A DNA stretch of 64,000 nt, taken from contig CAVOXA010000001.1 of NCBI GenBank assembly GCA_963700285.1, positions 1,376,001 to 1,440,000 of the forward strand. Reading direction: 5' to 3'. Of the stretch, positions 3,034 through 19,139 are shown piece by piece (positions within the stretch are counted from its first letter, which is position 1; each line of letters starts with the position of its first letter). Under the pieces are notes generated by a model. It did not search any database and was not told the origin of the DNA. It was given only the letters and a program-made list of their open reading frames with translations. Origin of the DNA: an uncultured Chloroflexia bacterium. GTDB lineage: Bacteria; Chloroflexota; Anaerolineae; JAAYZQ01. Made by a program: the position numbers and the translations under genes.

Positions 3034-6000
3034 ATGGAGCTATCGCGAAGAGATTTCATGAAACTGTCTGGAGCAAGCAGCCGGAGGCCTTTTCCTGCCG
3101 GCCGGTTTTGCGGCGACAGCGGCAGCCGAGGCGGGTGGTCTTTCCCGCTCCACAAGCCGATCGGTGAGGCAGCAACGATCTGCCCCTACTGCTCCTGCGG
3201 CTGTGGATTGCTGATCGCCACCGGGCCAGATGGACACATCATCAACTCGAGGGCGACCCAGACGACCATCAACAACCGGGGCGCGCTGGATCCCAAGTCG
3301 ATCTCGGTGCGCTCGCTGTCCCAGAGCGACCGGCGCCTGAACAAAGCCCATGTACCGGGCACCCGGCAGCGACAAGTTCGAGGAAGTAGAGTGGGACTGG
3401 GCCATCGATACGAGGTCGCCAAGCGGATCAAGAAGACCCGCGACGAGACCTTTCGAGAAGACGAATGCCAACGGCGTGACGGTCAATCGCACGCAGGCGA
3501 TCGCCTTCATGGGCGGCGCGGCCAACAACGACGAGGAGTGCTACCTCGCCGTCAAGCTGGCTCGCGCCCTGGGCCTGGTGTACATCGAACACCAGGCACG
3601 CATATGACACTCTGCCACTGTGGCCGGTCTGGCCACAACATTCGGGCGGGGTGCAATGACCAATCACTGGGTGGACCTCAAAAACGCCGACGTGATCATG
3701 ATCAACGGCTCCAACGCGGCGGAGAACCACCCGGCCTCGATGGCCTGGGTCAACAAGGCCCGCGACGAGCGCAAAGCCAAGTTGATCGTCGTCGATCCCC
3801 GCTTCACCCGCAGTGCGGCCAAGGCCGATATCTATGCCCCCATCCGCAGCGGCACGGACATCGCCTTCTACGGCGGCCTGATGAAGTACGTCATCGACAA
3901 CAACCTCTACCACGAGGAGTATGTGGTCCACTTTACCAACGCCGCCACCCTGATCAACCCCGAGTTCCAGGGTCCGGAAGACCTGGACGGGTCTTTTCTC
4001 CGGCTTTCGGACGACGACGGCGACGGCTTTGGCACCTACGCACGACCGGTCGACCTGGGCCTACCAGACCGATGCCGACGGCAATCCCCTGCGCGATGAG
4101 ACGCTCCAGGATCCCAACTGCGTCTTCCAACTGCTGAAGAAGCACTATCCGCGCTACGACCTGGACATGGTGTCGGCCATCACCGGCTGCCCCAAGGACA
4201 AGCTGGAGGAGGTGTACGATGCCTATGCCATCCACGGGCCAGCCGGACAAGACGGGCGACGATCCTGTACGCCATGGGCCAGACGCAGCACACGGTCGGC
4301 TCGCAGAACGTGCGCTGCATGGCCATGATCCAGCTGCTGCTGGGCAACATCGGACGGCCGGCGGCGGCGTGAACGCGCTGCGCGGCGAGAGCAACGTGCA
4401 GGGCTCGACCGACATGGCCATGCTGGCCCACATCATCCCGGCCTACATGTCCACGCCCGAACGCGGGAAGCCACCCGAACCTGGCCAGGCCTACCTCGAG
4501 GAGGAGACGCCCAAGACCAGCTACTGGTGCCAACAAGCCCAAGTTCCTGATCAGCCTGCTGAAGGCCTGGTGGGGCGACCATGCCACCGCGGACAACGAC
4601 TTTGCCTACGACTACCTGGGCAAGGTCGAGAGCGCGGCCAACCACTACTGGATCGCCCTGTTTGAGGCCATGCACGCCGGCACGATCAAGGGCTGCCTGG
4701 CTCCTGGGCCAGAACCCGGCGGTGGGCGGCCCCAACGCCCGCTTTGAGCGCGAGGCCCTGGAAAAGCTGGACTGGATGGTGGTCCAGGAGATCTTCCAGA
4801 CGGAGACGGTCGACTTCTGGAAGGCGCCGGGCACGAACCCGGCGGAGATCAAGACCGAGGTCTTTGTCCTGCCGGCGGCCGATGCCATGGAAAAAGAGGG
4901 CAGCATCGTCACCAGCGGGCGCCTGATCCAGTGGCGGCCCAAGGTGGCCGAAGCACCCGGCGAGGCCCTGCCCGACCACGACATCCAGAACCTGATCGGC
5001 CTCAAGCTGAAGGAGCTGTACGCCGCCGAGCCGGGCCCCTTTGCCGACCCCATCACGAACTCTGACCTGGGACTATGGCGGCGGGCCGGTCCATCCCGGT
5101 CGTCGGCGAGATGGTGGATATCGACAAGGTGGCCCACGAGATCAATGGCTATGCCATGGAGGACGTGCTGGATGACGACGGCAACGTCGTCGCCAAGAAG
5201 GGCGATCTGCTCAAGACCTTTGGCGCAGCTCACGGCCGATGGCAAGACGGCGTGCGGCAACTGGCTCTACGTGGGCTACTACTATCCGATGGCGGATGGC
5301 GAGGGCAACACCCTGCCGGCCAGCAAGCGGCGCGGCCAGAAGGACCCCGGTGGCCTGGGCATCTATCCCTACTGGGCCTACTCCTGGCCGGTCAACCGGC
5401 GCATCATCTACAACCGCTGCTCGGCCGACTCCAAGGGCAATCCCTGGCCCGGCGGCAAGGACCTGATCTGGTGGGATGCGGCCAGAGCAAGTGGACCGGC
5501 TACGACGTGCCCGACTTTGCCGGCGACCAAGGGCCCGGACGATCCCGGCTTCAACGATCCCTTCATCATGAAGACCGATGGCAAGGGCTGGCTCTTTGGC
5601 GCGCTGAACGAAGGACCGTTCCCCACCCACTACGAGCCGGTGGAGTCGCCGACGACCAACGCCCTGTACTCCAGCCAGCAGAACAACCCGGCTATCAAGG
5701 TCTGGCAGACGAACGAGGGACAGGACATCGGCGACAGCTATGGGCGATCGCCGGACAAGTTCCCCATCGTGGCCACGACCTACCGTGTTGTGGAGCACTG
5801 GCAGGCGGGCGGCATGTCCCGCTGGCTGGAGTGGCTGGCCGAAGCTCAGCCCGACATGTTCGTGGAGATGAGCGAGGAGCTGGCCGCAGGAGAAGGGGAT
5901 CAAGAACGGCGAGCTGGTCAAGGTCAGGTCGGCACGAGGCGAGATCGAGGCGGTGGCCATCGTCACCAAGCGCTTCAAGACCTTCCAGGTGAATGGCAAG

Positions 6001-6170
6001 GACGGTCCACCAGGTGGGCATGCCCTGGCACTTTGGCTGGGGCGGCGGCGGTGAGCTGGAGGCGCTGGCCAAGGGGGCAGCGGCCAACGATGCTGACGCC
6101 GCACGTGGGCGATGCCAACACCACGATCCCGGAATACAAGGCGTTCCTCGTGAACGTGGAGAAGGCGTAG
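3034..6170 (+). CDS. fdnG: Formate dehydrogenase-N/O-type alpha subunit, selenocysteine-containing, Tat-exported (multiple apparent frameshifts)
   Basis: SRRDFMK twin-arginine signal; CPYCSCGC; EHQARI-TGA(3605-3607)-HSATVAGLATTFGRGAMTNHW; LRGESNVQG; GPFPTHYEP; TTYRVVEHW; PEYKAFLVN. Pieces spread over ORFs 3034, 3350, 3620, 4029, 4219, 4581, 5075, 5993. Confidence 0.92.
3605..3637 (+). other. In-frame UGA (Sec) plus bacterial SECIS hairpin
   Basis: UGA at the catalytic Cys/Sec position; TGTGGCC-GGTCT-GGCCACA stem starts 11 nt after UGA, resembling the fdhF/fdnG SECIS. Confidence 0.9.
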
Positions 6171-6180
6171 GGGGTGCAAA

Positions 6181-6998
6181 ATGGCTGACAGACTTGCAAT
6201 GTACATCGACACGTCCAAGTGCATGGCCTGCCGTGGCTGCCAGGTGGCCTGCAAGCAGTGGAACGACCACCTGGGCTACGTCCCGGCGAGCGCGAGACGA
6301 GGAACATCGGCACCTACGAGAATCCCCTGTCGCTCGATCCGCAGACCTGGACGCGCATCAAGTTCACCGAGTACGACGATCCGAGATCGCGGTTCCAGTG
6401 GCTGTTCCTGAAAGAGGGTGCATGCACTGCACCGAGGCGGCCTGTGTGGACGTCTGCCCCACCGGCGGCGCTCAAGTACGGTCCCATGGGCATCATCACC
6501 TTCGAGCGCGAGCTGTGCAACGGCTGCGGCTACTGCAGCCAGTTCTGCCCCTTTGGGGTGCCGCAGCTGGAGGTGCTCAACGCCCTCACCGGCGAGGCCA
6601 AGAGTTCCAAGTGTGTCTTCTGCCAGGATCGGACGACGAACGGTCTGAAGCCAGCCTGTGTCAAGACCTGCCCGGCCGGGGCGCTGGACTGGGGCGACCG
6701 CGACGCAATGATCGCCAAGGCCGAAGCCCGTGTCGAGGAGCTCAAGGCCGAGCGGGGCTTTCCCAAGGCCAACGTCTATGGCAAGACCGAACTCGGCGGC
6801 TTGGGACGGATCTATGTGCTGACGGCCCCGGCGGCGGCCTATGACCTGCCCGAGGATCCCAAGTATCCGGCCATGAGCACGCTGGGCAAAAGATCCTCCA
6901 GCCGGTGGGGCAGGTCGCCTTTGGCGCGACCGTCGTCGGCGCGATTGCGGCCTTCTTTATCGCCCGGCGCAACGTTGCACATGGAGGAAGTAGAATGA
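6181..6998 (+). CDS. fdnH: Formate dehydrogenase iron-sulfur beta subunit (frameshifted)
   Basis: CMACRGCQVAC, CMHCTEAACVDVCP, CNGCGYCSQFCP, KCVFC...ACVKTCP; C-terminal TM anchor VAFGATVVGAIAAFFI in an adjacent frame. Confidence 0.9.
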
Positions 6999-7719
6999 GC
7001 GTCAGATTGAAGAGGTACAGACTCGGCCATCGCAGATCCGCTGGATCCCCAAGTACACCACCCTGGAACGGCTCCTGCACTGGGTCCATACGGCCACGCT
7101 TCCTCCCCCTGGCGCTGACGGGCTTTGTGCTCTTTGCTCCCTGGCTGCAGCCGATGGCCCAGAGCGAAGCCGGGCATCCACATCCGGCTGCTGCACCGCG
7201 TCGCAGCCGTCTTCTTTGGCGGCGTGCCCATCCTCTACACCATCCTGCAGCCCCGGCGGATGCTGATGAACCTGAAAGAGTTCCTGAGCTTTGGCAAGTA
7301 CGACCTCCTCTGGCTCAAAGCGGCCGATTCCCTACTATGTGCTGGGCGCCACGACGAGATGCCGCCCCAGCCCCGCTTCAACACCGGTGAGCGGCTGACG
7401 GCCGTCGTCATGGTCCTGGGCACGCTCACCTTTGGCATCACCGGCCTGTCGATGTGGTTCCTGAAGGGGATCATGCCACCGTGTCCTGTTCCAGTTGACG
7501 GTGCTCGTCCACGACCTGATGTTCATCGTCACCTTTGCCATGTTCATCGTCCACTTTTACCTGGCGGTGGTCCATCCCATGATGTGGCAGAGCCTGGTGA
7601 GCATGCGCTACGGCGTCGTGTCGGAGTCGTACGCCCGCGAGCACCACGCCATGTGGTACTATGGCGAGAAGCGGGCCAAGGAGATGTGGGAACAGCAGCC
7701 AGGCAGAGGCGGACATTAG
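6995..7719 (+). CDS. fdnI: Formate dehydrogenase cytochrome b gamma subunit (frameshifted)
   Basis: ERLLHWVH-like start, RLLHRVAAV, PPQPRFNTGE, VHDLMF...VHFYLAVVHP, YAREHHAMWY. Confidence 0.85.
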
Positions 7720-7734
7720 CTGCCTGCAGCAAGC

Positions 7735-7814
7735 GAGGGGACTGAGGGGCCTGGAGGTCGGAGGGGAGGAGCCTCCTCCGTGCCCTCTGGGTCTCTCGGC
7801 CCCTCTTCGTTTGT
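7735..7814 (+). terminator. Long imperfect hairpin / attenuator between fdnI and fdhE
   Basis: GAGGGG...GGAGG / CCTCC...CCCCTC stem followed by TTCGTTTGT. Confidence 0.45.
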
Positions 7815-13287: not shown

Positions 13288-14649
13288 TTACTCTGTTCTG
13301 TTCACAGGACCTTGCAGGATTCGGCCGGCGTACGTGGGCATGAACCGTGCCAGTCGCAAAAAGTTCTTGGGAGTGAGTAGGTATGAAAAGAAGCCAAAGA
13401 ACCCGGGGTGGAACATCAGAACAAGCGCGCCGCCATGCTCCAGGGCTTGTTCCAGGTCCTGGAGTGCCTGCTCGTAAAAGACCTCGGCAAAGTTCTTGTA
13501 GGGGATGCCAATGTCTCGAAACTGATAGCAGATGCAATAGGTATCTGAGAGATTGCCCTCGTTCGTCAGCCAGCGGTACGGCAAGTAATAGGCGAATGCG
13601 CGCTGAGATATTGTCCACAGGAACCCGGCGCCTTCGACCGCTCCCCAGTAGTTCGGTGTATAGTTCTCTACCAGTTCACCGCCGTGGTTAGACACGCCTG
13701 CCACAGGCACACCAGCGACTGCTTCGAGGTGTGCCTTGTCGGCCCTCGCGGCGGCCTCTTCGCTGCCATGCTTCTCAGCGTGGGCAAAGAACTCTGCGTG
13801 CAAGGCGATCTCAACCGGGTCGGACAAAGATGTGAGTTTATTGATCTCTTTGTCGTTGTAGAAAGGCTGAAACACGCGGATGTAGACTGTACTTCTGGCA
13901 CCATGCTCGTGCTCCAGTTTTACGATCCTGGGAACGTTCGTAAGGGCCCGCTCTACGTCGTGGCGTGGCGAGAAAACGCCTTTCATCACCTTGCCGTCAA
14001 TGCGAGGGTTGTACCAGATGCGGATAAGGGGCAGGCCCTGTTTAGCCAATCTGGCAACAACCAAGTCTCTGACGGCCACGATAGTCTCGTCGTACTCGGC
14101 TAGCTCTTGTCGGCGCAGGTGTCCCTCCATCATCTCCAGGATATCGTCTAGTTCATGGGAAAGGAAGAACTCTCCATCCTTGCCAATGGATGTATTCATG
14201 ATGCCTTCTCTTCGCAGGGCCTCAATCAGCAGGTCCCGTCGCGCCAGTGAGGCATCGACAACCCATTGCACATCTCCAGAAAGGGAGCAGTCCGGGCAGC
14301 CAACTGTGTGGGAAGTCAGAAACTCTCCTGGGAACTTTTCAAAGACCGCACCTTCTAGATCGGACCTCACGCTGCATCTCGCCTCGGATACACGAATGCT
14401 CAATGAGGCTCTATGGCGCCTGTCCCACCAACCAGCGTACTCTCCCTGAGATGCCATCCAGACATCTCCACGGGCTTGAACGCTTCGGAGGACGCGTTCG
14501 TAGGGGCGGTAGCTTCGGATCTTTGTGTACCTTTCGATTGCCCGTTTCATCAGGGTGATCTTCATCTTTTCATCCTCTGGGGGGCTTTGACTCTGATTCT
14601 GGAAGCTCTGAACGGCCTGGCTGCCCTGTTCGTCCGGTGACTGCGTCAC
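13288..14649 (-). CDS. Polysaccharide deacetylase (NodB/CE4)-like protein, unusual motif order
   Basis: RHDVE, STVYI, EIALH, NHGG, LVLMFHP motifs; RBS GAGGAGG before GTG. Confidence 0.6.
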   Translation of the reverse strand: MTQSPDEQGSQAVQSFQNQSQSPPEDEKMKITLMKRAIERYTKIRSYRPYERVLRSVQARGDVWMASQGEYAGWWDRRHRASLSIRVSEARCSVRSDLEGAVFEKFPGEFLTSHTVGCPDCSLSGDVQWVVDASLARRDLLIEALRREGIMNTSIGKDGEFFLSHELDDILEMMEGHLRRQELAEYDETIVAVRDLVVARLAKQGLPLIRIWYNPRIDGKVMKGVFSPRHDVERALTNVPRIVKLEHEHGARSTVYIRVFQPFYNDKEINKLTSLSDPVEIALHAEFFAHAEKHGSEEAAARADKAHLEAVAGVPVAGVSNHGGELVENYTPNYWGAVEGAGFLWTISQRAFAYYLPYRWLTNEGNLSDTYCICYQFRDIGIPYKNFAEVFYEQALQDLEQALEHGGALVLMFHPGFFGFFSYLLTPKNFLRLARFMPTYAGRILQGPVNRTE

Positions 14650-14701
14650 GTACCTCCTCGCCGCACTTTTTTGGACTGCTTGGTGCTGGACCTGAGCAGC
14701 T

Positions 14702-17035
14702 CTAGCTGGCGATGGGCCTCAGATTGCGCACAAAATCCTCGTAGGTGTTGCCAGCAAGTGGAACTCCGCAATGGGCGACGACCTTGGCGGGGTTTCCCTG
14801 CACCATTGTCAGGGGGGGAATGGACTGGCTTACCACACTTCCTGCGGTGACCACAGCACCCTGGCCAATGGTCAGGTTCGGTAGGATAATGGCTCCTGCA
14901 CCGATATAGGCATCGTCCTCAATCCGAACTGAGGGCTTGTTACCGGACTTGGCCCTGTCGGTGCTTTCTCTGAAATGGGCGACGATCACGGAGCGCATGC
15001 TGATCGATACGTTGTTGCCGATGGAGACAAGCTGGGGATAGGCGGTCTCGATGATCACCGAGGTTCCGATAGCAACGTTGTTGCCGATTTTGACGCCGCG
15101 CATTCGGTGCAGCCGAACCCGCGTTGTCTTGAAGCCTGGCGCATACAGAGCAATCACCTGGAGGACGCGGTTTCTGAGCCCCTTCCAAAAACTGTCTCTC
15201 ATGGGCTTGGACTCGGCTGGTTCGCTCCCTTCCTCCGTGGCCGCCGGGACCGGGCTGTCCTCTCCCCGCAGGATTCTGGCAACCTGCTCAATGGTCGGAG
15301 TTTGAAAGAATGACGCTAGGGAGCTGACCGATCCGCAGGTTCCCTCCGTCTGGGCAAACAGGCGCATGGCCAGAAGGGAGTTGCCTCCCAAGTCGAAGAA
15401 ACTGTCCCTGACACCGACGGACTGGACGTCCAGAACCTCTTCCCAAATCGCGGTCAGCTGGCGCTCCAGGTCATCGCGGGGCCCTAAGAAGGGCACATCC
15501 AGCTCTGGCCTGGATCTGCCAGTTCTCGATAGCTTACGCTGGCCTTTCGGCTCGGCTGAATCTGGACTGGTGCTTTCGGCTGCCGGACGGGGTTCCAGTT
15601 CGGGCACGGATAACAGAGACGATAGTGCAAGCTCTGGTGCGGCCACGGCTTGCTCCAGGATCCTAAAGAACTGGTCGAGCATTCGTTTGGCAGTGGATGC
15701 GTTATACAGGTCGGTTTTGTACTCCAGTATCCCTGTGAGGTCGTTGCCGCGCTGCTCAACAAAGAGAGACAACTCAAAATCGGTTGCTCCCTTGTCAAAG
15801 TCGAAGGGGTTCGTGGCCATGCCTTGCAGAGGAGGAACCTGGCTGGGAAAATTCTGGAGAGCAAACAGCGCCCTCGACAGAGGCGTGTGCGCGAGACCGG
15901 GTAACTCTGCCAGAGTCTGAAAGGGTAGGCGCTGGTGATCATAGGCCCCCATGACGACGCGACGCACTCGGTTCAGGAGTTCGCGAAAACTGGGGTCGCC
16001 GGAAAGGTCTGTACGCATGACAATGATGTTGTTAAAGTAGCCGATCAATGTTTCAAGCTCAGCCTGCTCTCGATTGGCGACAGGCGTGCACACCATGATG
16101 TCTTTCTGGCCCGAATGGTGAGCCAACAATGCCTGATAGGCAGCCAATAGGGTCATGTACAGCGTGACTCCCTCCTGCTGGCTCAGTGCCCTGAGGGAAT
16201 CTGCCAGGCCCTTCGGAAGTTTCAGCGATTCTCTGGCGCCTCGGAAGGTCAAGACTGCCTGCCGGGGATGATCGGTTGGCAATTCCAGCGCAGGCGGATT
16301 GTCGCCCAACTGCTGCTCCCAGTATGCGAGTTCTGACGCCAAAACCTCGCCCTGAAGTTGCTCTCGCTGCCAGTACGCAAAGTCGGCGTACTGGATAGGC
16401 AGTTCCGGGAGGGGCGAGGGTTCTCCCGCTGAGAAAGCTGTGTACAGCGCTGCCAGCTCCCGCAAGAGCACTTGAGCTGACCAGCCGTCAAACACGATGT
16501 GATGGATCACAAGGAGCAGTACGTGCTCCTCTGGATCCAGGCGCAGCAGCGTGGTCCGTAACAAAGGGCCACTGGCCAAGTTAAAGGGGCGCTGTGCGCC
16601 CTCGACTGCAAGGCGTGTGGCACGGTCCTGCCTCTCTACCTTTGGCCATTGATTCAAGTCAACAACAGGTATGGTCAAGGGTTGATGGGGTGTGATGATT
16701 CGATATGGCCTGCCCTCTTTGGTGGGGAAAGTAGCCCTCAGCGTCTCGTGCCTCCGGACGATTTCGCTGAGTGCCTGTTCCAGAACTGCGACGTCCAGGG
16801 GACCAGTGAGGTGCAGCGCAACGGGTCGGTTGTAGGCCGGGCTGCCAGGCTCCCATCGATCACGGAACCAAAGCCGCTCTTGAGCAAACGATAGGGGCGC
16901 ATCCTTCAGATCTGGGCGATGTGGGATCGTTGGCGACGCTGGCATCAATGCGCCCCGAAGGCGCTGCTCAAGCAGTGTTCTCTTGGCAGTGGACAGCCGG
17001 ACGCGCCGTTCAGAGCTAGTTCCGTCTTGTATCAT
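14702..17035 (-). CDS. NRPS-like protein: condensation domain - PCP - left-handed beta-helix (hexapeptide) acyltransferase
   Basis: PLSFAQERLW, RHETLRATF, HHIVFDGWS, QYADFAYWQ; PCP FFDLGGNSLLA; LbH repeats VKIGNNVAIG...IEDDAYIGAGAIILPNLTIGQGAVVTAGSVV...GNPAK; no A domain. Confidence 0.9.
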   Translation of the reverse strand: MIQDGTSSERRVRLSTAKRTLLEQRLRGALMPASPTIPHRPDLKDAPLSFAQERLWFRDRWEPGSPAYNRPVALHLTGPLDVAVLEQALSEIVRRHETLRATFPTKEGRPYRIITPHQPLTIPVVDLNQWPKVERQDRATRLAVEGAQRPFNLASGPLLRTTLLRLDPEEHVLLLVIHHIVFDGWSAQVLLRELAALYTAFSAGEPSPLPELPIQYADFAYWQREQLQGEVLASELAYWEQQLGDNPPALELPTDHPRQAVLTFRGARESLKLPKGLADSLRALSQQEGVTLYMTLLAAYQALLAHHSGQKDIMVCTPVANREQAELETLIGYFNNIIVMRTDLSGDPSFRELLNRVRRVVMGAYDHQRLPFQTLAELPGLAHTPLSRALFALQNFPSQVPPLQGMATNPFDFDKGATDFELSLFVEQRGNDLTGILEYKTDLYNASTAKRMLDQFFRILEQAVAAPELALSSLLSVPELEPRPAAESTSPDSAEPKGQRKLSRTGRSRPELDVPFLGPRDDLERQLTAIWEEVLDVQSVGVRDSFFDLGGNSLLAMRLFAQTEGTCGSVSSLASFFQTPTIEQVARILRGEDSPVPAATEEGSEPAESKPMRDSFWKGLRNRVLQVIALYAPGFKTTRVRLHRMRGVKIGNNVAIGTSVIIETAYPQLVSIGNNVSISMRSVIVAHFRESTDRAKSGNKPSVRIEDDAYIGAGAIILPNLTIGQGAVVTAGSVVSQSIPPLTMVQGNPAKVVAHCGVPLAGNTYEDFVRNLRPIAS

Positions 17036-17063
17036 TCCCACAAACCATCCAGACAGGGGCGGT

Positions 17064-18940
17064 TCAACCCAAGAGGCGCTGTGCTTCCTCGTCAGAGAGC
17101 GCTTCCAGCTCGGCGATGAGTATTTCTTCGATCTGGGCGGCCTGGCCGGCAATTGTGGGCTCTCGGAACATCATGGTCGCTGGTAGTTCAACCTGGAAGG
17201 CGGCGCGTACCCGTGTGACCACCTGGGTCGCCCGAAGCGAGTCGCCACCCAGCCCGAAAAAGTTGTCATAAACACCAATGCGCTGAATGCCCAGCACCTC
17301 TGCCCAGATCTTGGCCAAGGCCTCCTCGGCAGTGTCCCTGGGCGCCACGTATTGGGGTTTGAGCTGGGATGCCAGCTTGTCGTATAGACCGATGCGCTGC
17401 AACTTGCCGGTGGGCCCCTTTGGAATTTCATCGACAATCACAATCTGACTTGGTACTTTGAAATCCGCCAGCCGGTCAAAGGCCGTGCTACGGAGTTCCT
17501 GTTCCGAGACCGCGGAGCCCTGGTGCAACACAACGGCCGCGGCTACGTCCTCGCCCAGTGTTGTGTGAGGTACGGCAAAGGTGACGGCTTGTGCGACCGC
17601 GGGATGGTCCAGGAGAGCTTCGTCGACTTCCCTTGGCACGACCTTTTCGCCGCCGCGATTGATGATCTCTTTGAGACGACCGGTAATCAAGAGATAGCCA
17701 TCTCCGTCCAGGTAGCCCTCATCACCGGTCCGGAACCAGCCGTCTGTGAACGAACTCTCATTTGCCTCGGGGTTGTTCTCATAGCCCGCGGTGACGTTGG
17801 CACCGCGGATAACAATCTCCCCCGTTGCTGCCCGACGGAACCAGATGGCCGTCTTGATCCATGATCGCTACATCTGGCCCGGTGGCTATTCCTACGGAGC
17901 CGGGCTTTTCGCTCTGCTGGAGGAAGGGGGTTGCTGCTCATCTGGTGGGCGGCTTCGGTCATGCCGTAAGCCTCGAGTGCCGGGACGCCAAAGGTACGCT
18001 CCAACTCTGCCATCACCTGAGGGGGCAGGGCAGCGGAGCAGGAGCGGATGAACCGCAGTGAATGGCGGGCAACAATGTCGCTGTTGGCAGCAGAACGATT
18101 CAGGATTGCCTGGTGCATCGTTGGAACAGCCGTGTACCAGCTTGGCTGGAAGGCATCTAGCCAACCAAAAAATTCGGCATCATCAAAGCCGGAGGTACAA
18201 ACGACGCTGGCGCCGGACACCATTGTCGACAGAATCGCCGCGACGAGGCCGTGAATGTGAAACAAGGGCATGACATTCAGACAGCGATCAGTGCTGGAGA
18301 GTTTGTAGGCATTTCGAATATTATGGGCCGAGGTACAAAGATTCTCGTGGGTCAGAGGGACGATCTTGGGGCGTGAGGTCGTGCCAGAAGTATGGAGCAC
18401 CAGAGCTACATCGCTAGGTTGTGCATAGCCGCCAGCAGCAGGGCTGGATCCCTTCTCCCCGGTGAGCGCAAACAGGCCGGCTTCAGCCTCGAAATCTGGT
18501 AGTAGTTCGATGATGGGGATGGCGTGGTTCCGCGCTACCTCTGAAGCTGGCGAATCCATGCCCGAAAGGATGAGCAGCGCCTTGGCATGTAAATCTGACA
18601 GATAGAAGTCGAATTCGCGGGCGCCATAGGCAGGATTGAGCGGTGCGCAGGTTGCGCCCGAAGCCACGGACAGAAAGGCGGTCGCCATCTCCGGACTGTT
18701 GGGTAGAACAATGGCCACCCGGTCATTGCGTCCCACCCCTATTGAGTTCAGCGAGGCGACGACTTCTGCGATGTGGTCGCCCAGCCGGCCGTATGACAGG
18801 GGGCGGCGGCCTGGAGCGGCTAGAGCCACGCTTTCTGGAGAACACCGAGCCTGGTAGAAAAGCAGGTCGCCTATGGCTTGCTCGGCGCAACCCGTGCTGA
18901 AAACGGTCTTCTGGTTCATGGTCCGAAGGGACTCCATCAT
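17064..18940 (-). CDS. Oxalate-CoA-ligase-like adenylation domain fused to PCP (frameshifts near 17830-17905)
   Basis: APLNPAY, LHTSGTTSRPK, MPLFHIHGL, WYTAVPTMHQAIL, LRFIRSCSAAL, EAYGMTEAAHQMSSNPLP, GWFRTGD, GRLKEIINRGGEK, PKGPTGKLQR; PCP FFGLGGDSLRA. Confidence 0.88.
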
Positions 18941-19139
18941 CTCATGTCCTTCCAGTGTCAGCTAACGCGCACTAGTCTGCACGAATCCCCTATATACCAC
19001 ATCTAGGTTGAGAAGTCAATTCCCAAGCTGATGTGATGGGCGCGCGGCGCCTGGCTCTGATCGACGTTCGCCAGAGATGCCTCCGGGAATAGCAGACATC
19101 GCCTCTCAGCCAGCGGCCCAGCCGTGCTTGCCCCAAGCC

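Follow-up and report, generated by a model that had tools for sequence, protein, structure and literature searches.

A three-gene operon lies in the 64,000-nucleotide stretch analysed here (the window: contig CAVOXA010000001.1, positions 1,376,001 to 1,440,000, of assembly GCA_963700285.1, from an uncultured Chloroflexia bacterium), and its parts suggest an assembly line that may place oxalate on a glycan. The genes, all on the minus strand and in the same orientation (13288-18940), encode an adenylation (A) domain joined to a peptidyl carrier protein (A-PCP, with carrier T1), a condensation (C) domain joined to a second carrier, T2, and to a left-handed beta-helix acyltransferase-type domain (C-PCP-LbH), and a deacetylase-like protein, ORF3. 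The reading that we prefer, tentatively, is that oxalate is activated, transferred to T2, and used by LbH to oxalylate a precursor of a surface polysaccharide. It shares with a rival reading, in which the group moved is N-oxalyl-aminoacyl, the idea of oxalate-derived glycan acylation through LbH, and that shared idea we consider probable. At the sequence level the basis is the domain order, the pocket residues of the A domain, the carrier serines, an LbH histidine, and 2 phosphopantetheinyl transferase (PPTase)-family genes in the genome.

Gene 1 (18940-17064, minus strand) has one A domain and one PP-binding domain; gene 2 (17035-14702, minus strand) encodes 777 aa; ORF3 (14565-13288, minus strand) encodes 425 aa and has the same ATG start in its relatives. 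The gaps between them are 28 nt and 136 nt. An earlier sequence-only reading had described three close, co-oriented genes here, with an intact HHxxxDG motif, both carrier serines, and no second A domain, thioesterase (TE), or reductase. All of that is borne out. A Pfam scan of the operon finds 1 A, 2 PP-binding, 1 C, and hexapeptide repeats, and neither a TE, a reductase, nor a second A domain. The quoted motifs are all present, in the A domain as PLFHIHGL (18268), WYTAVPTMHQ (18139), FIRSCSAAL (18052), and EAAHQMSSNPLP (17956), and in the C domain and carriers as HHIVFDG (16504), GGDSL (17249), and GGNSL (15388). Of the canonical elongation and termination features of a nonribosomal peptide synthetase (NRPS), the HHxxxDG and carrier Ser motifs are thus there, and the A domain of an extending module, a TE, or a reductase are absent.

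The A domain is of the oxalyl-CoA synthetase type

The A domain of gene 1 (17375..18940, minus strand) has its best PDB matches to oxalyl-CoA synthetases (6qjz, 5ie0, 8atd, and 8aff; E = 1e-71 to 6e-59), with the next family following at E = 4e-27, more than 30 orders of magnitude behind. In AtAAE3 the oxalate pocket consists of eight residues, with direct contacts from Ser289, His319, and Lys500, and the excerpted text of that study reports Ser289 and His319 to be conserved solely among oxalyl-CoA synthetases (PMC8905533). The same excerpts give the grass-pea enzyme a residual activity on glyoxylate that is 61-fold lower. In the frame-corrected read-through of gene 1, Ser302, His332, and Lys513 align with those three contacts, and the pocket as a whole, I-H-C-S-G-M-H-K, is identical to AtAAE3 at 6 of 8 positions with 2 conservative changes (Val to Ile and Ala to Gly). 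All three contacts are kept in 201 of the 207 relatives that align across the whole pocket, a figure for conservation and not for function, as those relatives were chosen by similarity.

The sequence-only reading had taken the domain for an oxalate-type and not an amino-acid-type A domain, and the PDB matches, the pocket residues, and the lyase neighbors of the family described below all agree with it. It had proposed an Arg and a His as oxalate contacts; the Arg, though conserved, is outside the contacts that the excerpts of PMC8905533 list. A fatty-acyl ligase identity was considered and rejected, the FadD7 model scoring 242 bits against a cut-off of 650 and the pocket being oxalate-type. 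We conclude that the domain is likely an oxalyl-CoA-synthetase-type enzyme that activates oxalate. Unlike the free oxalyl-CoA synthetases of about 510-540 aa, it is fused to a carrier.

Long proteins with an A domain of the oxalate type turn out to be widespread. Proteins of 591-2000 aa account for 5448 of 8000 scored candidates, with E up to 1e-80, and nearly all of 120 such proteins listed carry a carrier, in the arrangements A-T, A-T-TE, and A-T-C-A-T. Part of the set P0148-P0256 comes from cyanobacteria (Iningainema tapete, Kamptonema formosum, Argonema galeatum, and Coleofasciculus). Other genomes of the phylum (L182, L183:1071-13988, L184) have an oxalate-type A-T before C-C-A-T and a polyketide synthase (PKS), or fused to C or TE. 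The present genome has a second oxalate-ligase-like A-T, 59% identical (L074:8927-14427; G000:C10, about 574-579 kb), followed by a C-A-T protein without a release domain, and the pair is conserved in a same-genus genome. The pocket of this paralogue is altered (FICSRSA, YGLTEASSH, with the His contact displaced), and it may load another acid.

LbH ends many kinds of assembly line

The LbH domain (14702..15200, minus strand; PF00132, E = 2e-9) has a clade-specific N-terminal extension. Its His687 is conserved in 99% and its GNPA motif in 100% of 120 relatives. PDB matches are to DapH, QdtC, and the maltose/galactoside and serine acetyltransferases, and in QdtC and SACOL2570 a His stands in the column of His687. 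LbH falls below the curated cut-offs of YvoF, WcaF, NeuD/PglB, CysE, maltose acetyltransferase, and Vat, the best NCBIfam match being a lipid O-acetyltransferase model at 81 bits against 300. Membership in Pls/PosA was rejected, as there is one LbH domain only and the match to the Pls terminal-domain model TIGR02353 is weak (49.6 bits against 423).

A protein search with the PCP-LbH part found 274 proteins, of which 120 were listed and classified. Single-chain oxalate-type A-T-LbH proteins make up 104 of these; the rest comprise 9 that are fragments or A-T-LbH proteins with a different A domain, 6 with the layout C-T-LbH (the gene 2 protein among them), and 1 C-A-T-LbH. The conserved unit of the family is, by these architectures, A-PCP-LbH without C, and C-PCP-LbH is a rare variant; the fusion singled out by the sequence-only reading does recur, also in a same-genus genome, but is not the core of the family. 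Named relatives come from metagenome-assembled genomes of Thermodesulfovibrionales, Terriglobia, and Deferrimicrobiaceae. No plasmid record covers 80% of a full A-T-LbH protein.

In a profile-free search for LbH among representatives at 50% identity, 83 were found at E up to 1e-30, and the 38 long ones were domain-scanned. A, T, C, or KS domains precede LbH in 36 of the 38. Besides A-T-LbH with many non-oxalate pockets, the architectures ending in this clade are C-A-T-LbH, multi-module NRPS, and a KS-AT-KR-ACP-LbH PKS. Even where the LbH gene stands alone, a crude motif test on the 25 cases with at least 1.5 kb of upstream DNA finds a carrier-like gene there in 18 and an A domain in 15. Because A, T, C, or KS domains precede it, the LbH clade looks like an unnamed release domain that occupies the TE position after many cargo types, which upholds the release position assigned to it by the sequence-only reading. 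The LbH tree is short and weakly supported. Among individual proteins, P0284 (a PKS module), P0274 (a multi-module NRPS), and P0267 (C-A-oxidase-T) each terminate in this LbH domain.

A scan of the genome collection with LbH alone gave 2 close loci among 73, and the LbH-only search turned up the domain in 2 genomes, from a single genus, among 401 of the class, and in 2 among 301 of the G002 phylum. When the phylum was searched with alignment A1, A-domain matches crowded out the rest, with 2 candidates scored per genome, and the outcome says little on the absence of LbH. The occurrence in a single genus of the class suggests that the operon was recently acquired there.

Genes that travel with the family

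A metagenome scan found at least 410 LbH relatives, and the best 80 loci were kept. Oxalate-type A-T-LbH is encoded in 27 of them (18 groups at 90% LbH identity) and a stand-alone LbH with an intact 5' end in 40 (27 groups); the remaining 13, others or cut, were excluded from the contrasts. A S-adenosylmethionine (SAM) methyltransferase is the next gene in 21/27 oxalate-type loci (13/18 groups) and in 0/40 stand-alone loci; such a neighbor would be expected if the transferred group leaves a free carboxyl to cap. A lyase of the isocitrate lyase/phosphoenolpyruvate (ICL/PEP)-mutase family is found in 6/27 oxalate-type loci (5/18 groups) and again in 0/40 stand-alone loci. On groups, Fisher p is 1e-7 for the methyltransferase and 0.007 for the lyase, values that overstate independence.

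All 6 neighbor lyases have an RCGH loop with the catalytic Cys, together with Ser in a marker column that is Ser in 3lye, the fungal oxaloacetate hydrolase, and in 1zlp, the petal death protein, and Pro in methylisocitrate and dimethylmalate lyases. Ser as a marker of oxaloacetate hydrolase activity comes by way of citing papers, in the parts of them available (PMC3256194, PMC8224569), and we infer that the "Ser281" of that literature is the aligned column here. The best PDB matches of the lyases are mixed, for instance 1zlp for that of L088 and 4iqd for that of L087. Our prediction is that the neighbor lyases make oxalate from oxaloacetate. Because a predicted oxalate-making lyase recurs in the oxalate-type loci and not in the stand-alone LbH loci, these neighbors are independent support for oxalate as the putative cargo of the family.

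Glycan genes (priming or other glycosyltransferase, Wzy, Wzx, or nucleotide-sugar genes) are found in 10 of the 14 oxalate-type loci of at least 8 kb and in 8 of 15 long stand-alone LbH loci, and a CE4-like gene is found in 21 of 31 long loci. In genome G981 the gene order is CE4-like, methyltransferase, oxalate A-T-LbH, methyltransferase, with nucleotide-sugar-like genes upstream of the cassette and a priming transferase downstream. The glycan setting that the sequence-only reading proposed, and suggested looking for around homologues, is thus seen for the family; locally no glycan gene is adjacent, as described below.

Two further groups recur near the LbH clade. One is an unnamed family of about 600 aa (L091:6064-7860) with invariant DD and HG.DH motifs, found in 25 of 82 loci and predicted to have a NodB/Agd3-like structure. 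The other is a cassette (L002, L122, L134-L136, L141) of a luciferase-like monooxygenase, an amino-acid-type A domain, a small carrier, and a stand-alone LbH, at times with a formyltransferase or carbamoyltransferase and often amid glycan genes.

Carriers and C domain

Carrier T1 (GGDSL; 17064..17340, minus strand; PF00550, E = 1.5e-15) ends in an acidic C-terminal tail that resembles an NRPS docking tail and may serve in docking. Gene 2 begins with a docking-like N-terminal helix and the C domain (15635..17035, minus strand; PF00668, E = 2e-104), in which HHIVFDG is intact. After it come a linker (15488..15634, minus strand) and carrier T2 (GGNSL; 15269..15487, minus strand; PF00550, E = 2.5e-11), whose carrier Ser is kept in 120/120 aligned relatives. 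The C domain has its best PDB matches in teixobactin synthetase C domains and looks like one of the ordinary elongation type.

The linker between C and T2 has at its end a remnant of an A-to-T linker, RPELDVPFLGPRDDLE, which corresponds to the stretch after the A domain in P0008, a C-A-T-LbH relative. Because of this probable scar of a deleted A domain, the gene 2 module likely lost one. In a C-domain tree made by a quick method the backbone stayed open, and the donor module could not be named. The catalytic His of the C domain has been lost in a second A-less C-T-LbH lineage, represented by P0006 and P0263, which share about 70% identity between them and about 50% with the gene 2 protein. That loss favors a route in which C would form no bond, and the intact motif here keeps an oxalyl-amino-acid route alive.

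ORF3

ORF3 (13288..14565, minus strand) has no match in Pfam, NCBIfam, or PDB sequence searches and has 23 relatives in the protein collection. A model made from a 20-row alignment reached a pLDDT of 85.7 (32.5 from the single sequence), and its fold matches PplD (Z = 13.6), WbmS (12.9), and ArnD (12.7), with agreement from a language-model atlas. In the Foldseek ranking the first 9 rows, and in the VIA ranking the first 15, all belong to CE4-type or CE4-fold proteins, including a turret protein of a virus. On this predicted structure ORF3 has a CE4/NodB-type deacetylase fold, as the sequence-only reading had it. Residues 20-63 match the C-terminal end of neighboring CE4-like proteins (probability 72%), and because its N-terminal ~60 residues match that end, ORF3 appears to be circularly permuted. 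Across 20 aligned relatives D203, H256, E258, H294, and H386 never vary, and the usual CE4 HxxxH motif is absent. In both genomes of the genus ORF3 comes next after the LbH gene. The 80 metagenome loci gave no member of the ORF3 family at a clear score.

Integrity of the operon

As assembled, gene 1 is in three frames, from extra bases near 17902-17909 and at 17824, both single-base insertions in homopolymer runs (within 17820..17910, minus strand). A 549-nt metagenome contig (run X2, 6 mismatches) has neither extra base, and the first is also missing from a contig of run X3 with 1 mismatch. In the same-genus genome both insertion sites are intact and the breaks lie elsewhere, and P0148 is an intact orthologue of 623 aa, 87% identical over 623 columns. 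Since near-identical contigs lack them and an intact orthologue exists, the extra bases are very likely long-read assembly errors. Near-identical DNA is present in four sediment metagenome runs, and none of the contigs examined covers the entire operon. Gene order is kept in the same-genus relative, against which dN/dS is 0.17 for the A core, 0.21 for C, 0.08 for LbH, and 0.13 for ORF3, with 0.15 for mutL as a control. We rejected gene 1 as a true pseudogene on the contigs without frameshifts and the low dN/dS.

A candidate sigma-70-like promoter, TTGACT-17-TATATA (18991..19019, minus strand), was picked by eye in the 200-nt gap before gene 1 and is weak; a consensus promoter scan did not list it, and a promoter/terminator scan gave no more than shuffled sequence. 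Elsewhere in the window (4581-7745), what looks from its translations like a formate-dehydrogenase operon is split into overlapping frames, which fits assembly-wide long-read indels.

Host genome

The assembly has 7.05 Mb in 22 contigs and is 89% complete. In the same-genus relative, a Wzx/Wzy locus (L177-L179; G000:C1, 1.317-1.365 Mb) stands at the same place with respect to the operon as it does here, which does no more than suggest a link between the two. This locus encodes a priming transferase, Wzy, Wzx, family 4 glycosyltransferases (GT4s), a sulfotransferase, and CE4, FemAB-like, LbH, and Gfo proteins, and it continues directly into NRPS modules, among them A-MT-T and C-A-T-TE proteins. 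In the relative, a reverse-transcriptase-like open reading frame with YADD (L001:15139-16881), presumably of the group II intron type, lies beside two-component genes; it is absent from the window.

Proposed mechanism

The A domain would form oxalyl-AMP with ATP and load T1 as a thioester, a step in which we have high confidence. The two proteins would then dock, and oxalyl would reach T2 either because the A domain also loads it in trans or through a thiol exchange at C, which would be a remnant of a C-A-T module after loss of its A domain; this is uncertain, with the balance slightly in its favor. The direct oxalyl route is preferred because the majority form of the family has no C domain and the P0006/P0263 lineage lost the catalytic His. 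Next, much as LpxD draws on ACP, an LbH trimer would take the acyl group off T2 and transfer it, His687 serving as base; this we think quite likely. Its acceptor would be a hydroxyl or an amino group on a sugar, probably in a sugar nucleotide or in the lipid-linked repeat unit of a Wzx/Wzy polymer. Before that last step ORF3 might, speculatively, remove an N-acetyl or N-formyl group.

Several things weigh against this reading. No member of the family has a known activity, and all functional steps are predicted. Next to the operon lie mutL and genes for an epimerase-like protein and a GNAT in one direction and a two-component system in the other; no glycan gene adjoins it in either genome of the genus, and one has to go about 25 kb past its 3' end, on the same strand, to reach the start of the closest Wzx/Wzy locus. 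Across the family, 4 of the 14 long oxalate-type loci are without any tested glycan gene, and the loci are related, so that the contrasts between oxalate-type and stand-alone LbH overstate independence. The operon is also without the methyltransferase typical of family loci. The 89%-complete assembly has no PEP_mutase-family lyase, and no oxalyl-CoA decarboxylase or oxalate antiporter scores above its family cut-off, which leaves the source of oxalate here unexplained. In the C domain, HHxxxDG is intact in 5/5 proteins of its clade and in the same-genus relative; with the purifying selection on C, this would fit real condensation chemistry better than a scaffold.

The intact motif and the dN/dS of 0.21 also count in favor of a rival reading in which C works normally, an amino acid being loaded on T2 in trans, C joining it to the oxalyl group from T1, and LbH transferring N-oxalyl-aminoacyl to a glycan precursor. 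Docking-like ends on both proteins, the C-A-T-LbH relatives P0008 and P0293, and the NRPS modules that adjoin the Wzx/Wzy locus, 50-70 kb from the operon, speak for it, and A-less modules loaded in trans are known from WS9326A and thalassospiramide in the part of PMC10510592 available. It is held back by the operon having neither a second A domain nor a shuttle thioesterase, by the amino-acid-type A domains found in the genome all lying in its three NRPS loci, and by the His loss in the sister A-less lineage. We judge it unlikely, if still a serious contender. An acceptor other than a glycan, such as a free amine taken by C or LbH, or another small molecule or lipid, would give a metal chelator or other metabolite. 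The absence of adjoining glycan genes would then be no surprise, oxalate A-T loaders head ordinary NRPS and PKS lines too, and the best NCBIfam match of LbH, far under its cut-off, is a lipid enzyme; the glycan context across the family, the predicted carbohydrate-deacetylase fold of ORF3, and the position of the Wzx/Wzy locus, kept in the second genome, make this improbable.

The cargo could also have drifted, with the A domain now taking some other tiny acid (glyoxylate, oxamate, malonate, or monomethyl oxalate). The 2 of 8 pocket positions that differ from the plant enzyme would allow this, as would the glyoxylate activity in the excerpted grass-pea data, the missing oxalate source, and the altered pocket of the genome's paralogue. 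With the three direct contacts kept both here and in nearly all fully aligned relatives, and a predicted oxalate-making lyase in 6/27 family loci, such a drift seems rather more improbable still. Lowest of all we place a cassette stranded or decaying in this genome, with ORF3 as an unrelated neighbor 136 nt away. Two assembly frameshifts, a lost A domain, the missing methyltransferase, the rarity of LbH in the class, and an ORF3 family without a clear-score match in the metagenome loci would suit decay; against it, the frameshifts are missing from near-identical contigs, all four parts have dN/dS of 0.08 to 0.21, like mutL, and gene order is kept in the relative.

Relation to known systems

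For oxalylation by LbH, the separate parts have precedents, in oxalyl-CoA synthetase, ACP-fed LbH enzymes, Pls terminal domains, and plant oxalyl sugars. The closest solved relatives of the A domain, with an oxalate pocket in common, are the oxalyl-CoA synthetases AtAAE3 of Arabidopsis (5IE0-5IE3), LsOCS of grass pea (6QJZ), and Pcs60 of yeast (8AFF), but these are free and load CoA for catabolism or beta-ODAP synthesis, whereas the domain here is carrier-fused and would feed a transferase. A bacterial Oxs-like stand-alone relative, 57% identical to P0024, is on a plasmid and adjoins a 2-dehydropantoate-reductase (PanE)-like gene. In Dlt and similar systems an A domain, a carrier, and a transferase decorate a glycopolymer, as proposed for this operon, with an amino-acid cargo and a membrane-bound transferase in contrast to the soluble LbH domain here.

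LpxA and LpxD are LbH trimers that pass an acyl group from a phosphopantetheinyl carrier to a sugar nucleotide with a His base, according to the excerpts of PMC6286764, and deacetylation by LpxC before N-acylation by LpxD would parallel the ORF3 step. Unlike the operon, they take free fatty acyl-ACP and have no A, C, or fused carrier, and in sequence they are remote from LbH, the 60 PDB matches listed naming no LpxA or LpxD entry other than a weak LpxA-like protein from a plant. In Pls/PosA, A and T are followed by acetyltransferase-related domains in place of C or TE, as here, but there are three such domains with six membrane segments and the enzyme polymerises an amino acid, in the part of PMC8117764 available, against a single LbH domain here. 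The accessible text on a plant cell-wall oxalyltransferase establishes that O-oxalyl sugars and oxalyl polysaccharides exist in nature; that reaction is an apoplastic transacylation from oxalyl-threonate, with no ATP, carrier, or LbH (PMC6099474). The WS9326A and thalassospiramide modules are C-T without their own A, like gene 2, and by the excerpts of PMC10510592 their carrier gets its amino acid in trans within a long peptide line with ordinary release.

As the sequence-only reading had supposed, the literature listings contain no characterised system of this architecture, and neither an LbH release domain nor an oxalate-loading carrier system is described in them, with most subscription journals outside their coverage. 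Among the top matches listed for oxalyl and O-antigen, no bacterial oxalyl or methyl-oxalyl decoration of a surface polysaccharide is described either.

We give about even chances to a joint, wider view, namely that the LbH clade is a hitherto unrecognised class of release domain moving any product of such a line (oxalyl, aminoacyl, peptide, or polyketide) to a sugar, and that its commonest version produces its own oxalate, loads it, and places oxalyl or methyl-oxalyl on bacterial surface polysaccharides. With the 790-aa single-chain A-T-LbH relatives, a single purified protein would be enough to test the idea. If true, it would add a release chemistry to NRPS and PKS logic and tie such lines directly to glycan synthesis, and bacterial oxalate, tied by its known ligases to catabolism, would gain a part in biosynthesis. 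The oxalyl group is strongly acidic and binds calcium and other metals, and its addition would alter the charge and metal binding of the coat of these soil and sediment bacteria.

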